Positions 2,523 to 8,053 of a stretch of DNA of 64,000 nucleotides are shown piece after piece; position 1 is the first letter of the stretch, and each line of letters starts with the position of its first letter. The DNA is from a plasmid. The notes beneath the pieces are model-generated. The model searched no databases, was not told where the DNA came from, and was given only the letters and a program-made list of their open reading frames with translations. The translations under genes were made by a program, and so were the position numbers. The stretch lies in the sequence record NZ_AP019754.1, one strand, 5' to 3'.

Positions 2523-3716
2523 TTGCTGACCACCATTATTTACCGCAGCCACATTTCGGATGACGTTCCTGTTAAGACGCTTCCAGGAATGGTGGATGAT
2601 GCCAGCATACTTAATGCTTCCCATGAAGTGACAGGCATTTTGTTGTTTAATGGCACACATTTCTTCCAGTTGCTGGAAGGCCCGGAAGAGGGCGTTCTTG
2701 CTATTTACCAACGTATCTGTGCCGATCGCCGACATCACAACGTGGTAGAACTGATGCGTGACTACGCGCCATCCCGTCGCTTCGGTAACGCCGGAATGGA
2801 GTTGTTCGATTTGCGTGAACACGATCGTTCAACCGTGCTTCAGGCGGTTCTCGATAAAGGCACCTCCAAATATCAGCTAACCTATGCTGACAGAGCGCTG
2901 CAGTTCCTGCGTACCTTCGTAGAAGCGCGTGAAAAAGAAAACTACTACGAGGTATTACCGTCAGAATACTGGGAATTCATTCCTGAAGCGCCTGCCTCAA
3001 GCGCGGCAAAATCCTCTCCTTCGGGTATCACCTTCCGACCGGTTGTTGATCCCCTTGCCAGGCAGGTGACGGCTATTGAGGCGATTACGGATACGCGCCA
3101 CAGCGGCAGCGATCCCAATGGGTCGGATAAAAAGTTACATGATGCCGACCTCGATGCCGTGATTAAAGCTTTCGAGATGGCAGGCAGGGCCTGTCCGGAT
3201 GAAATGACCCTGTATGTCAGCCTGCTTCCTATGACGCTGGTGGTCGTGCCGGACGCCGTTGCCAGAATTGTTGCAACCATCAACGCCTCAGGTCTGGTGC
3301 CGGAGCAGGTGGTCATTGGCGTCAGTGAAACCGAAGTTATTTCACGGCTGGAAGCGTTTTCCGTGGCTGTCAGGGAGCTTAAAGCCGCCGGTATCAGCCT
3401 GTCCGTTGATAACTTCGGTGCGGGCTCGGCAGGATTGTCATTGCTGACCCACATTCAGCCCGATCGCATTCGTATTGATTCCAGTATCACCACGGATGTT
3501 CATCGAAGCGGCCCGAAACAGGCAGTTGTTCAGGCGATCATCAAATGCTGTTCAGCATTAGAAATCACGGTAATTGCCGCAGGCATCGTGAAAGCGGAAG
3601 AGTGGATGTGGCTGGAAGCCGCGGGCGTGATCAACTTTCAGGGCAGTCTGTTTGCGTCGCCAGATTCGGGGCAGTCCGATGCGGTTGCCTGGCCAGAATA
3701 TCGTGACGCAATGTAA
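2523..3716 (+). CDS. bluF: BLUF-EAL blue-light sensor protein (BluF/YcgF/BlrP-like)
   Basis: 397 aa. The N-terminus (IYRSHISDD...GILLFNGTHFFQLLEGPEEGVLAIYQRI) is a textbook BLUF FAD-binding fold. The C-terminal half is EAL-like. Size matches E. coli BluF (403 aa). Confidence 0.8.
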   Translation: MLTTIIYRSHISDDVPVKTLPGMVDDASILNASHEVTGILLFNGTHFFQLLEGPEEGVLAIYQRICADRRHHNVVELMRDYAPSRRFGNAGMELFDLREHDRSTVLQAVLDKGTSKYQLTYADRALQFLRTFVEAREKENYYEVLPSEYWEFIPEAPASSAAKSSPSGITFRPVVDPLARQVTAIEAITDTRHSGSDPNGSDKKLHDADLDAVIKAFEMAGRACPDEMTLYVSLLPMTLVVVPDAVARIVATINASGLVPEQVVIGVSETEVISRLEAFSVAVRELKAAGISLSVDNFGAGSAGLSLLTHIQPDRIRIDSSITTDVHRSGPKQAVVQAIIKCCSALEITVIAAGIVKAEEWMWLEAAGVINFQGSLFASPDSGQSDAVAWPEYRDAM

Positions 3717-4157: not shown

Positions 4158-4973
4158 ATGGCAGCATTACGGAAAATAAAAACCTGTTCAGGTACACATA
4201 ACATGAAAGAAAACAGTCGCTTAGAATCGATCATGAATTATCTTAAAGGCAACAATCTGGTCACGGTTGAACAGCTTGTTACGGTGACCGGTGCGTCACC
4301 TGCGACCATAAGACGCGATCTGATTAAACTCGATCACGAAGGTGTCGTCAGTCGCACGCATGGCGGCGTTACCCTGAACCGGTTTATCCCTTCTCAGCCC
4401 ACGACGCTGGAAAAGTCGTCGCGCAATCTGGCTGAGAAACACGCGATTGCCCGTGTTGCGGCCAGTTTTATCAAAGCCGGTGATGCGGTGATACTGGACG
4501 CCGGTACCACCATGTTTGAGCTGGCGCGACAGATTACCCATATGCCTTTACGTGTGATCACCAACGATCTGCATATCGCGCTGTTTTTGTCTGAGTTCAA
4601 ACAGATTGAAGTGACAATTATTGGCGGTCGCATTGATGAAAGCAGCCAGTCATGCATTGGTGACCACGGACGAAAACTGCTTAATAATATTCATCCGGAC
4701 ATTGCCTTCCTGAGCGGTAACGGATGGGATGGGGTTAAGGGCGTGACGTCGCCTACAGAAGAAAAGGCCGCGCTCAAACGAGACCTGATCAGGAACGCCC
4801 AGCGCCGAATTTTACTGGCAGACAGCTCAAAATACGGCGCATGGTCGCTGTTCAACGTGGTGCATTTGAAGGAGCTTACGGATATTGTCACCGATGCCAA
4901 CCTGGATAATGAGATTCGGCAAAGGTTGCTGTCAAACCCACTCCCTGCGCTGACGATCGCGGAACCCGTGTAA
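4158..4973 (+). CDS. DeoR-family transcriptional regulator (HTH + sugar-phosphate-binding domain)
   Basis: N-terminal DeoR HTH ([21 protein letters not shown]) and a C-terminal DeoRC domain. The true start may be the internal Met at 4203 ([15 protein letters not shown]). Confidence 0.75.
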
Positions 4974-5240
4974 CACGCCGTTGCCTATGGCGGTGTTGCA
5001 GACCAATCGGGTGCGGATGAGTGCGTGGCGGAACAGCGCGTTAACCGCGTGGCACAGATTATTGCCCGGGCATGGCATCAAGATTTGCCCAGAGGAGCGC
5101 GCGGCTGAGAAAGGATTAAGGGTTTGCGACAGGATAAATGCGTCAGGCAGGTACCAGGGTTGGCGCCAGAACACGACATCGCTGAACCGGCTGATAAAAT
5201 ACGCGCCTGGGTCACGCAACCGTTATCCCGCCAGCGAGCG

Positions 5241-5519
5241 TTACTCGTCTATCAGGGGTTTGAGATACAAGCGTGTATCGCCGTCTTCACCATGTTTTGG
5301 GTGCCAGACCATGGCTGCATTTTCATCGCCGATGTAGGTCATCCCCAAAGGTTCTATGACTGCATAGGGCCGCGCGAAAGCGGCCCGGTAGGCCAGTAAC
5401 TCTTTTGCCATTGCCACAACCTGATGAGAAACGTCGTCGGGGTGGGTGACAATGTGATTCAACTGTTCTTCAGTCAGCATACTTCCATTCCTGAACACCC
5501 AGCCCATAAACGAAGCCAT
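5241..5519 (-). CDS. hypothetical protein (92 aa)
   Basis: Open frame with no recognisable domain and a weak SD. It sits 60 bp downstream of a heptanucleotide tandem repeat. Confidence 0.35.
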   Translation of the reverse strand: MASFMGWVFRNGSMLTEEQLNHIVTHPDDVSHQVVAMAKELLAYRAAFARPYAVIEPLGMTYIGDENAAMVWHPKHGEDGDTRLYLKPLIDE

Positions 5520-5580
5520 CTGGCAGGGGTTTTAAATCTGTTAATTATAGTCAAACGGGTTACCGTCAGCTTTCGTCATT

Positions 5581-5621
5581 GCTCAACGCTCAACGCTCAA
5601 CGCTCAACGCTCAACGCTCAA
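5581..5621. repeat. heptanucleotide tandem repeat (GCTCAAC) x ~5.7
   Basis: Direct reading: gctcaac gctcaac gctcaac gctcaac gctcaac gctcaa. Intergenic, 62-102 bp upstream of the minus-strand ORF that starts at 5519. Confidence 0.9.
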
Positions 5622-6286
5622 TGGACATGACCCATATTGGCTGTAGGGCGTAGCTTACTACGGGAAGGACAGATTTCGAAGGCCTGTTGACAGCGGTGCA
5701 GAAGAAAGGAAAGGGCAGCAGGACAGGCGTTACCTTATGCGTCGAAAAATCAGACAGAAAAGACGCGACAGCTGGCCTGCGACATCTTCACTATTTATAG
5801 CCATATGATCGCGGTTGGTGTTGTTGGCTTCAGCAACAGGGTAGCGCGCGTTTTACGCTTGTGCATGAGCCGCCATTTTCGCTTCCGCCCCGTCAGGCTC
5901 AGAGAATGAGGCGGTAACGCGTTACACAAAACGATCTGAAGATATTGCTGAAAGAGCGGTAAGCGCAACAGGTGAACGCATTTTCATGTTATAGCCTGCG
6001 GTTATTCAGGCAGGCAGCTGCGCTTTTGATGAGGTGAATGATAAATATGCCCGGAATAATCAGGTCGTTTATTCGATTGCTTCACTTTGGCTTGCACTCA
6101 TGTGTGCTATCGACATAGCGGACGACGCGGTTTCTCGTTAAAAATCTTAGAAAAAAGTTCCGGTCATGTTATACAGTCTCGCATAGCCCTTGTTTGCGAT
6201 AAATCGTCCTTTAACAGGGCGCTAAATATTTAAATTTAGGCTAAATTAGTTTCTGCGTTTTTGCACCCGCACAAGGGGAGGCTGTT

Positions 6287-8053
6287 GTGCACAATAATCA
6301 AAGTGGCAATGACGAAAATCGTCTCAAAGCGGTTAAAGCACTTTTGTCACCTGATGTCACCAGGGATGAGGTGCTGGAAAAGTTTGTTCATCTTGCCGCG
6401 CAGGTACTGGGCATTTCAGGCAGTTTTATTTCTATTATTGATGATAAAAATCAATATATTAAGGTTTCCCGTAATTTCAATCTTAAAGAATCCGCACGAG
6501 AAGTTTCCCTTTGTCGTCACGTGATTGACGGTGACGGACAGCTCGTTGTGCAGGACACATTACAGGATAACCGCTTTACCTTTCATCCACTTGTTGAGGG
6601 TGAGCCGCACATTCGGTTTTATGCAGGCGTGTCGTTATCTAATCTGGAAGGGCTGGTTTTAGGCACGCTTTGCGTGACCGACACAAAGCCTCATACGTTT
6701 AGTGATGAGCAACTGGACACCTTAAAGTCGCTGGCAAAACTGGTTAGTTCTTTTCTGGATGCCTGGAATCTTGCCAGTTTCACGGACCTGATCACGCTTT
6801 TACCCAACCGGCCCCGACTTATTCGCGACATGCAGCAGTTGACCGTCAATAATCCCGATCGTCGTTTTCGCCTGATCCTCATCGACTGTCTTGATATTCC
6901 ACAGGCGTATGAGTTATCCCGTACTTTTGGCATTGCGCCGGTAGAAAACCTGCTCAGACAAATTGCCGGACTGGTCGGTGTTCGTCTTCAACTGCAGTCA
7001 GATGACATGCTGTATTCATTTGCGCCCGGCCGGTTTGCGTTAATACAACCTTATCTTGGTGGTTATAATGCGCAAAGCACCGTTGAGGTATTAACCAGCC
7101 TTAAAGCAGATTTAGCGGATAACATTACGATTGATATTGATGTTTATACGGGTGAGACAGAGTTTGTTTCCCGCGACATCGATGCGAATGAAGTGGTGCG
7201 CCAGGCGGTTAGTGCATTACACGAATGTATCCATCAAAACATGGGCGCCATGACGTTCGATCATGCTTATGATTCGCGTCGCACTGAAGATTTTTTGATT
7301 ATGAACGATCTGGCTCAGGCGCTTAAAAAAGATGAAGGCCTGTACCTCGCTTATCAGCCAAAGGTCTGTTTAAAAACGGGAAAAACCGTAGGGCTTGAGG
7401 CTTTGATCCGCTGGCACCACCCGGAGAGAGGCGAACTGTTTCCGGCCGACTTTATACCGCTGGCCATTAAAACCAACCTGATTTCTGTCCTCACTGACTG
7501 GGTTATCGATCGCGTTATTATTCAGCTTAAGCAATGGAACAACGAGTTTGAACTTATCCCGGTATCCGTGAACGTCAGCGAACGTGACTTTTCCAGACCA
7601 GAGTTTGCATCTGGCTTAGCCAGTAAAATGCAGGCGGCAGCCTTGCCGACAGCACTACTGGGCATTGAGTGTCTGGAAAACGAGCTCATTACGGAGAGCG
7701 ATATCGCCATTAACGGGCTGGAGGCGCTTAAAGCTCAGGGATTTGTTATTTCACTGGACGACTTCGGTACGGGCTACAGTAATATCAGTTATCTGCAGGA
7801 AATACCGCTAGATGTCATTAAGGTCGATATGTCTTTAATTGGCCGAATGGATGGCGATCATGCATCAAGAATCATCGTGCGGAGTATTATCATGATGTTG
7901 AAAGAACTGAATTATACGGTACTGGCAGAAGGCGTTGAAACTGAAGCCACGTTGAGTTTGCTGAAGCAATACGGTTGTGACCAGATACAGGGTTACTTCT
8001 TTTCGAAGCCGCTCCCGGCCAGCGATATCGAACACTGGTTGCTGCAGAAGTAA
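6287..8053 (+). CDS. GAF / degenerate-GGDEF / EAL domain c-di-GMP phosphodiesterase-type protein (paralog B)
   Basis: 588 aa. GTG start preceded by AAGGGGAGG at a 6-nt spacing. EAL motif intact (GLEALIRWHHP). DDFGTGYS and QGYFFSKP motifs present. Colinear with the 37..1833 product. Confidence 0.8.
   Translation: MHNNQSGNDENRLKAVKALLSPDVTRDEVLEKFVHLAAQVLGISGSFISIIDDKNQYIKVSRNFNLKESAREVSLCRHVIDGDGQLVVQDTLQDNRFTFHPLVEGEPHIRFYAGVSLSNLEGLVLGTLCVTDTKPHTFSDEQLDTLKSLAKLVSSFLDAWNLASFTDLITLLPNRPRLIRDMQQLTVNNPDRRFRLILIDCLDIPQAYELSRTFGIAPVENLLRQIAGLVGVRLQLQSDDMLYSFAPGRFALIQPYLGGYNAQSTVEVLTSLKADLADNITIDIDVYTGETEFVSRDIDANEVVRQAVSALHECIHQNMGAMTFDHAYDSRRTEDFLIMNDLAQALKKDEGLYLAYQPKVCLKTGKTVGLEALIRWHHPERGELFPADFIPLAIKTNLISVLTDWVIDRVIIQLKQWNNEFELIPVSVNVSERDFSRPEFASGLASKMQAAALPTALLGIECLENELITESDIAINGLEALKAQGFVISLDDFGTGYSNISYLQEIPLDVIKVDMSLIGRMDGDHASRIIVRSIIMMLKELNYTVLAEGVETEATLSLLKQYGCDQIQGYFFSKPLPASDIEHWLLQK

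Follow-up and report, generated by a model that had tools for sequence, protein, structure and literature searches.

A perfect heptanucleotide repeat lies in non-coding DNA of a Pantoea plasmid, between a small gene of the minus strand and a c-di-GMP phosphodiesterase gene of the plus strand. Does this repeat act as a genetic switch on one of its neighbours, or is it a variable repeat of the kind used in strain typing? Haemophilus, Neisseria and Campylobacter are well known for switching genes by means of repeats; to our knowledge such switching is rare in Enterobacterales, and our literature search found no report of it in Pantoea. A first, sequence-only reading of the 64-kb stretch of record NZ_AP019754.1 (the window) had proposed that the tract changes length by slipped-strand mispairing and controls transcription by altering the spacing between -35 and -10 hexamers. 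In this work we examined the tract within the window, its copy number across strains, the conservation of the surrounding DNA and the candidate promoters nearby.

The Repeat Tract and Its Location

The tract occupies positions 5581-5622 of the plus strand and is made up of five perfect GCTCAAC units (5581-5615) and a closing variant, GCTCAAT (5616-5622). The terminal GCTCAAT is included in all unit counts given here, so that the window allele has 6 units. Tandem Repeats Finder reported 5581-5621 as an array of period 7 with 5.9 copies, 100% matches and a score of 82, the top-scoring array of the whole 64 kb, in which all the remaining arrays have at most 2.8 copies and scores of 45 or below. 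This result and direct reading confirmed the perfect, head-to-tail repeat of nearly six copies noticed at first. A scan with the two-unit 14-mer, allowing up to two mismatches, gave 6 matches in the window against 0.58 expected (0 of 100 shuffled sequences reached 6) and no second copy of the tract within the 64 kb. The plus strand of the tract as single-stranded DNA is unstructured (z = +1.4). No inverted repeats were reported near the tract by the search tool, no Rfam family was matched in an E-value-mode search of 4900-6400, and the 25-mer at the left junction had no match in a metagenome scan.

The plus strand of the tract is stop-free in every frame, and each of the three minus-strand frames contains TGA. 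A coding role was rejected: no ORF through the tract is conserved, and no intergenic ORF is common to four species. The plus-strand ORF at 5424-5630 overlaps the small gene in antisense and is not conserved, and a 65-aa 'hypothetical protein' in the TZ39 and RSPAM1 annotations is owed solely to a 1-bp indel of that clade.

A 1.1-kb query against PLSDB matched 15 plasmids of 259-339 kb, all from Pantoea and all in a single replicon cluster. The replicon is the LPP-1-type megaplasmid of Pantoea ananatis, of ~270-340 kb (LPP-1 is described in PMC3505739), and the chromosomal setting implied by the sequence-only reading was dropped. In strain LMG 20103 (L193, CP001875.2) the region lies within a 4.70-Mb entry labelled chromosome; all other assemblies carry it on a replicon of ~270-340 kb. 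The products of the small gene, called as 79 aa or 92 aa, are encoded in exact form on P. ananatis replicons including AP012033.1 and HE617161.1.

Three c-di-GMP phosphodiesterase-type genes, two GAF-EAL paralogues and one BLUF-EAL gene, are found inside 8 kb around the tract. One GAF-EAL paralogue is on the minus strand at 37-1833, and the BLUF-EAL gene, of the blue-light sensor type, is on the plus strand at 2523-3716. The other GAF-EAL paralogue (6287-8053, plus strand, GTG start) begins 666 bp downstream of the tract and encodes a GAF/degenerate GGDEF/EAL c-di-GMP phosphodiesterase, named 'sensor domain-containing phosphodiesterase' in RefSeq (Pfam values: EAL, 2.3e-69; GAF, 4.6e-14; GGDEF, 0.006, under the cutoff). 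The GGDEF domain is degenerate or undetectable in both paralogues. A gene for a DeoR/GlpR-family regulator (4203-4973, plus strand; Pfam HTH_DeoR and DeoRC; 256 aa in the plasmid records) is convergent with the small gene, and the neighbourhood also carries 6-phospho-beta-glucosidase and PTS genes on the minus strand. The non-coding stretch that bears the tract measures 806 bp from the small gene to the GAF-EAL gene. The same intergenic region has indels of 4 bp (GGCG) and 21 bp (GCTGACAACGCCAGGCGCGAG) at 6073/6074 and 6117/6118; both segments are carried by most strains and missing from the window and its close relatives, and the 21-bp segment is bounded by GCTGAC direct repeats.

The Small Gene Next to the Tract

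The nearest gene with its 5' side towards the tract is located at 5241-5480 on the minus strand. It encodes an orphan 79-aa protein (WP_014598192, 'hypothetical protein') and is annotated as a 240-bp CDS in 13 plasmid records. The gene is real, and its dN/dS is 0.04-0.11 against the orthologues of P. allii, P. stewartii and Pantoea sp. L043. Gene callers differ on its length: RefSeq gives 79 aa, and some GenBank and JGI records give a 92-aa ORF by means of an in-frame upstream extension (5481-5519, minus strand); in a genome-collection index the 79-aa form is present in 599 blocks and the 92-aa form in 50. Of the two candidate starts, the ATG at 5480, immediately preceded by GGAATGGAAG, is the one conserved across species, whereas P. 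allii, Pantoea sp. L043 and P. stewartii lack the ATG at 5519. Judged from this comparison of start codons, the extension 5481-5519 is probably non-coding leader sequence. The distance of 62-102 bp between the tract and a minus-strand ORF, as first described, holds for the 92-aa call; since the conserved start is the ATG at 5480, the tract lies 101-141 bp upstream of the real gene.

The 79-aa protein had no match among Pfam, NCBIfam or PDB sequences, and no signal peptide was evident by eye. Its AlphaFold model has a pLDDT of 68, below what a fold search needs. The protein is confined to the P. ananatis/allii/stewartii group, plus a few remote relatives of ~80 aa without domains; profile searching across 1.8 billion representatives turned up 11 weak matches, and none of the seven scanned for Pfam domains had one.

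Copy Number Varies Across Strains

Loci were gathered by exact-protein look-ups (five window proteins and four homologues) and from 13 plasmid records, and alleles were counted in 62 non-duplicate orthologous P. ananatis loci, the window included. Two units were present at 46 of the 62 loci (74%), three units at five, four units at two, five units at four and six units at three; alleles of 7 and 12 units were found at one locus each. The tract is thus 14-84 bp long across strains. All alleles differ by whole 7-bp units, and in all 62 loci the flanks are identical (TCGTCATT on one side and GGACATG on the other) and the terminal GCTCAAT is unchanged; the minimum is two units. Such whole-unit steps between identical flanks demonstrate slippage-type copy-number variation, and the seven alleles (2, 3, 4, 5, 6, 7 and 12) bear out the claim of a slipped-strand mispairing tract. 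Invariance of copy number among isolates, the result named beforehand as speaking against that claim, was not seen in this comparison of 62 loci, which spanned 2-12 units. Finished records carry 7 units in YJ76, 5 units in JBR-LB3-16 and TZ39, 3 units in FDAARGOS_680 and LMG 20103, and 2 units in AJ13355, LMG 5342, PA13, PNA 97-1R, OC5a, R100 and NN08200.

Expanded alleles are scattered over at least eight separate lineages of a neighbour-joining tree built from the flanks. One clade is rich in them: the window and L185 have 6 units, L008 and L002 have 5 and L004 has 12, and the 2-unit loci L181 and L178 belong to the same clade. A divergent clade has a single expanded allele (TZ39, 5 units) and is otherwise all 2-unit. 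Strains that are 1-5 bases apart in the 3.6-kb flanks have the same allele: the window and L185 (6 units each) differ at one flank base, and L019/L191 (3 units) and L011/L189 (4 units) are near-identical in their flanks. L005 (3 units) and L184 (2 units) are separated by only 3 base differences in 3.6 kb. Near-identical strains sharing alleles point to a rate suited to a typing marker, above point substitution and not visibly hypermutable. As a control, six other perfect 2-copy duplications (5-7 bp units) of the same 6-kb locus, including one intergenic 7-bp example 450 bp away, showed no length variant in any strain, and the tract is thus more mutable than nearby sequence.

The divergent clade, labelled P. 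ananatis (L029-L033 and L044-L053) and joined by Pantoea sp. RSPAM1, is ~3-4% divergent in the flanking genes and ~8% divergent in the small gene, with a synonymous divergence of 0.43; it may represent a separate species or a distinct plasmid lineage. The 12-unit locus L004 (GCA_003533915.1, DQCT01000026.1) has flanks that differ from those of all other loci at ~150 of 3600 positions; between its small gene and the DeoR gene there are 76 additional bp and an additional call of a 107-aa ORF. The Logan contig L175 (SRR7130709, k = 31) stops within the repeat, which is to be expected where a tract exceeds k; breaks of this sort could serve to pick out strains that carry long alleles.

Conserved Blocks on Both Sides of the Tract

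A proximal conserved non-coding block (5520-5580, minus strand) extends from the tract towards the small gene and contains a perfect TATAAT at 5549-5544. The two P. ananatis clades are 98% identical in this block, and its identity to P. allii is 72%. A distal block (5630-5695) on the far side of the tract is conserved in both P. ananatis clades, P. allii and Pantoea sp. L043; it is not shared by P. stewartii and has no Rfam match. Identity to P. allii is 76% in the distal segment 5640-5700 and 41% in the linker that holds the tract (5580-5640), the least conserved 60 bp; neighbouring intergenic DNA is at 45-60%. The distal block contains the palindrome CGTAGCTTACTACG at 5649-5662 (CGTAG-CTTA-CTACG, with 5-bp arms, found by eye) and a TTCGAA palindrome at 5675-5680. 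The distal block may be an operator or promoter, and the DeoR/GlpR regulator is a candidate binder of the conserved non-coding blocks.

The 220 bp of 5481-5700, taken without the tract, are 96.9% identical between the two P. ananatis clades, compared to 91.7% for the small gene and 81-89% for other intergenic DNA. The stretch is more conserved than the gene itself, and the tract is therefore located inside a constrained, probably regulatory region, in which whole-unit insertions of 7-70 bp could matter. Measured from an anchor in one block to an anchor in the other, the 2-unit loci of both P. ananatis clades have a spacing of 69 bp and P. allii has 70 bp; the distance is 63 bp in Pantoea sp. 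L043 and reaches 97 bp in the window. Placed between two conserved elements, the tract thus forms an expandable linker upstream of a conserved gene.

Origin of the Repeat

At the homologous position P. allii has a degenerate sequence, GCAGAACGGTCAGG, in which 9 of 14 bases agree with GCTCAACGCTCAAT; in Pantoea sp. L043 and P. stewartii the sequence there is unrelated and holds no repeat. The repeat is therefore specific to P. ananatis sensu lato. We propose that in P. ananatis a 14-bp stretch of the poorly constrained linker became two near-identical units, GCTCAAC and GCTCAAT, on which the nascent strand could misalign by whole units during replication, and that the LPP-1 megaplasmid lineages would in this way have come to carry their present 2 to 12 units. 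The 2-unit state may be a floor because slippage cannot delete the variant terminal unit.

A genome-collection scan with three GCTCAAC units returned arrays of 3-15 units in at least 120 other species-representative genomes. Every match listed came from a MAG or genome of another phylum, with Verrucomicrobiota, Bacteroidales, Sulfurovum, Limnohabitans and Ottowia among the sources. Among the matches listed, one Ottowia MAG carries several arrays (L059, L061, L078, L099 and L105), and no orientation bias relative to downstream ORFs was found. The lack of such a bias indicated that the arrays in other genomes are unrelated repeats and not a family.

Does the Tract Regulate Its Neighbours?

We concluded that action of the tract as a genetic switch is not supported and that it is best read as an ordinary variable repeat of the strain-typing kind. 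With moderate confidence we regard it as a variable-number tandem repeat (VNTR) made by slippage, near-neutral, in the linker of the orphan small gene's regulatory region. A long tract is not kept in most strains (46 of 62 loci are at the minimum, and the repeat is absent or degenerate in sister species), and this predominance of the 2-unit state, together with sister species that do without the repeat, argues against a maintained contingency locus. The common 2-unit state would represent the inter-block spacing that is found also in P. allii, the variation of the tract would be selectively near-neutral, and expanded alleles such as the 6-unit allele of the window would be sporadic derivatives. 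At most, expanded alleles might tune transcription of the small gene, through a shift of the distal block by 7 to 70 bp from the proximal block and the gene start or through a longer leader; the tract would be neither an on/off switch of the -35/-10 type nor a controller of the GAF-EAL gene. The evidence supports a variable repeat only, which is a modest finding. Near neutrality has to be weighed against the constraint on the 220 bp around the tract, which is probably regulatory, and against the seven alleles found here with none at six control duplications, a difference that could reflect selection for variability and not just a sequence favourable to slippage. The clade with mostly expanded alleles (5, 5, 6, 6 and 12 units) indicates that long tracts can persist, and, should the tract be transcribed in the direction of the small gene, the self-pairing predicted for its (GUUGAGC)n RNA would recall the hmw leader described below.

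The main rival to a near-neutral VNTR is a graded effect of copy number on expression of the 79-aa gene, which we consider unlikely. It could arise by re-spacing of the two blocks, each unit moving the palindrome at 5649-5662 by 7 bp or about two thirds of a helical turn, or by a self-pairing leader, in which a transcription start in the distal block would let each unit lengthen (GUUGAGC)n in the 5' leader. The position of the tract is suggestive, exactly between two conserved blocks and upstream of a gene under strong purifying selection, as is the near-equal block spacing of the 2-unit alleles of both clades and P. allii against that of the window; the shorter spacing of Pantoea sp. L043 indicates that the distance is not strictly fixed. 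Within the distal block, a minus-strand pair of TTCGAA (5680-5675) and TAAGCT (5657-5652) separated by 17 bp is the only sigma-70-like candidate on the gene strand that a weight-matrix scan found positionally kept in three species. This candidate promoter would place the tract in the leader, but the pair is weak (score ~6, 3/6 matches in each hexamer). RNA read through the tract towards the small gene would contain (GUUGAGC)n, for which self-pairing via G-U is predicted at ~4 kcal/mol per unit, with RNA stabilities of -37.7, -50.8 and -78.7 kcal/mol predicted for 2, 6 and 12 units, whereas the predicted accessibility of the ribosome-binding site is nearly flat over copy number (0.48 to 0.57). 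By analogy, the heptameric repeat in the hmw1A leader of Haemophilus influenzae works in this general way (PMC12721329). The 5-unit allele, which adds 21 bp or two helical turns, makes up 4 of the 16 expanded alleles, an excess on too few cases for significance, and three quarters of the strains are at the minimal state. If copy number did alter expression of the small gene, the strains would provide a natural allelic series beside c-di-GMP and blue-light signalling genes.

We judge it improbable that the tract is a true tuning or contingency element that sets expression of the orphan 79-aa protein within a light and c-di-GMP gene cluster of a plant-associated member of the Enterobacterales. 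Such an element would re-phase a distal operator against the promoter or, as in hmw, form a (GUUGAGC)n leader hairpin that lengthens with each unit. In that case, lineages carrying 5-12 units would be variants in the expression of the light/c-di-GMP pathway.

Classical promoter phase variation, in which the tract alters -35/-10 spacing and turns a gene on or off, is very improbable. The copy number does vary between strains and the unit reads TTGAGC on the minus strand, a 4/6 match to the -35 consensus, but no -10-like hexamer lies 15-19 bp from any TTGAGC, and the best pair within the tract scores 0.0 for its -10. A promoter/terminator consensus scan of both strands of 5200-6400 found none, and the weight-matrix scan found no sigma-70-like promoter spanning the tract. 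The perfect TATAAT at 5549-5544 sits 32 bp outside the tract and has no usable -35 (the best candidate scores -4.9); the divergent clade has TAAAAT in its place, and in P. allii, where the sequence is CACGAT, the hexamer is not conserved. At 41 bp here and 14-84 bp elsewhere, the tract is also too long to serve as a spacer between hexamers, and it neither lies between nor overlaps the -35 and -10 of any predictable promoter. The spacing mechanism put forward by the sequence-only reading is therefore not supported. The P. ananatis literature yielded 5'-RACE on selected sRNAs and no genome-wide start-site map.

The chance that the tract regulates the GAF-EAL gene, via a long leader or as a distant upstream element, is likewise very small. 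The tract was correctly placed in the ~660-bp region ahead of this gene (666 bp to the GTG at 6287), the two share one intergenic region, and the plus strand of the tract contains no stop in any frame. A regulatory link to this gene is unlikely because the gene has a promoter-proximal region of its own, ~170 bp at 6111-6286 (plus strand), which is conserved in four species with near-continuous identity from GTTAAAAAT to the GTG start and suffices for its own promoter. This block is ~500 bp from the tract, and the intervening 400 bp are poorly conserved (45-60% to P. allii) and carry the other indels of 4 and 21 bp. No plus-strand promoter-like site near the tract was found to keep its position across species.

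An iteron-like array, whose units bind a regulator or replication protein so that copy number sets occupancy, is extremely unlikely. Direct repeats, a conserved upstream region and an adjacent DeoR-family gene are all present, but P. allii, Pantoea sp. L043 and P. stewartii keep the gene without conserving the unit, neighbouring sites spaced 7 bp apart would not share one face of the helix, the commonest allele has two units, and no replication gene is adjacent. Assembly artefact as the source of the copy-number differences is practically negligible: the k = 31 Logan contig does break within the tract and the 12-unit allele is on a contig with unusually divergent flanks (152 differences in 3.6 kb), but tracts of 14-84 bp are shorter than ordinary reads, which makes assembly collapse unlikely, finished plasmid records carry different alleles, and near-identical strains assembled independently have the same allele.

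Comparison With Known Repeat Systems

The TAAA repeat of nadA in Neisseria meningitidis is an upstream tract with phase variation for which the regulators and the expression effects are established. By analogy, the Pantoea tract would also be upstream of a core promoter region, with whole units changing the geometry between a distal site and the promoter; unlike at nadA, the promoter and the binding protein at the Pantoea tract are candidates. The STRR sequences of cyanobacteria are heptanucleotide direct repeats dispersed over many loci per genome. The dispersed intergenic heptamer TAACTGA of Beggiatoaceae is likewise present at many loci per genome (PMC4679880). The Pantoea tract resembles both as a heptanucleotide direct repeat in non-coding DNA and differs from both in being single in the window.

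In mechanism, the closest parallel is the (ATCTTTC)n repeat upstream of the adhesin genes hmw1A/hmw2A of non-typeable H. influenzae (PMC12721329; PMC8262952). That tract, with at least 11 units in nature, is transcribed, and pairs with a separate G-rich arm into a long hairpin that RNase III cleaves; the longer the tract, the lower the expression of the adhesin (PMC12721329). Both are 7-bp tandem units upstream of a coding sequence and vary among strains by slippage, and the RNA of the Pantoea tract, if made in the direction of the small gene, is predicted to fold into a hairpin that lengthens with each added unit. In contrast to hmw, the Pantoea tract has a mode of 2 and a maximum of 12 units and adjoins the gene of a small protein, not of an adhesin; a search for a separate complementary arm for (GUUGAGC)n found none, the predicted pairing being within the repeat via G-U. 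The nearest case within Enterobacterales is the poly-psi heptanucleotide repeat of neuO in E. coli K1 (cited in PMC9659370), which is within the coding sequence and turns translation on or off by frame. It shares with our tract a slippage-variable heptanucleotide, a host from the Enterobacterales and an accessory element, whereas the Pantoea tract is non-coding (TGA in three frames of the minus strand and no conserved ORF).

A full-text literature search found no VNTR/MLVA typing of P. ananatis, the five papers in which both terms occur being about other organisms, and no phase variation reported in this species. The tract fits the definition of a VNTR and fails the tests of a maintained contingency locus, as its commonest allele has two units, sister species lack it and it is not overlapped by a promoter. 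Like the VNTR markers used in MLVA, it is a short-unit intergenic repeat with several alleles that is stable among near-identical isolates and differs among lineages; since the modal allele is the 2-unit minimum, its discriminatory power as a marker of this type is modest. It gives the core LPP-1 megaplasmid of this important plant pathogen a clean polymorphism that is easy to score and that could, like those markers, be used for typing.
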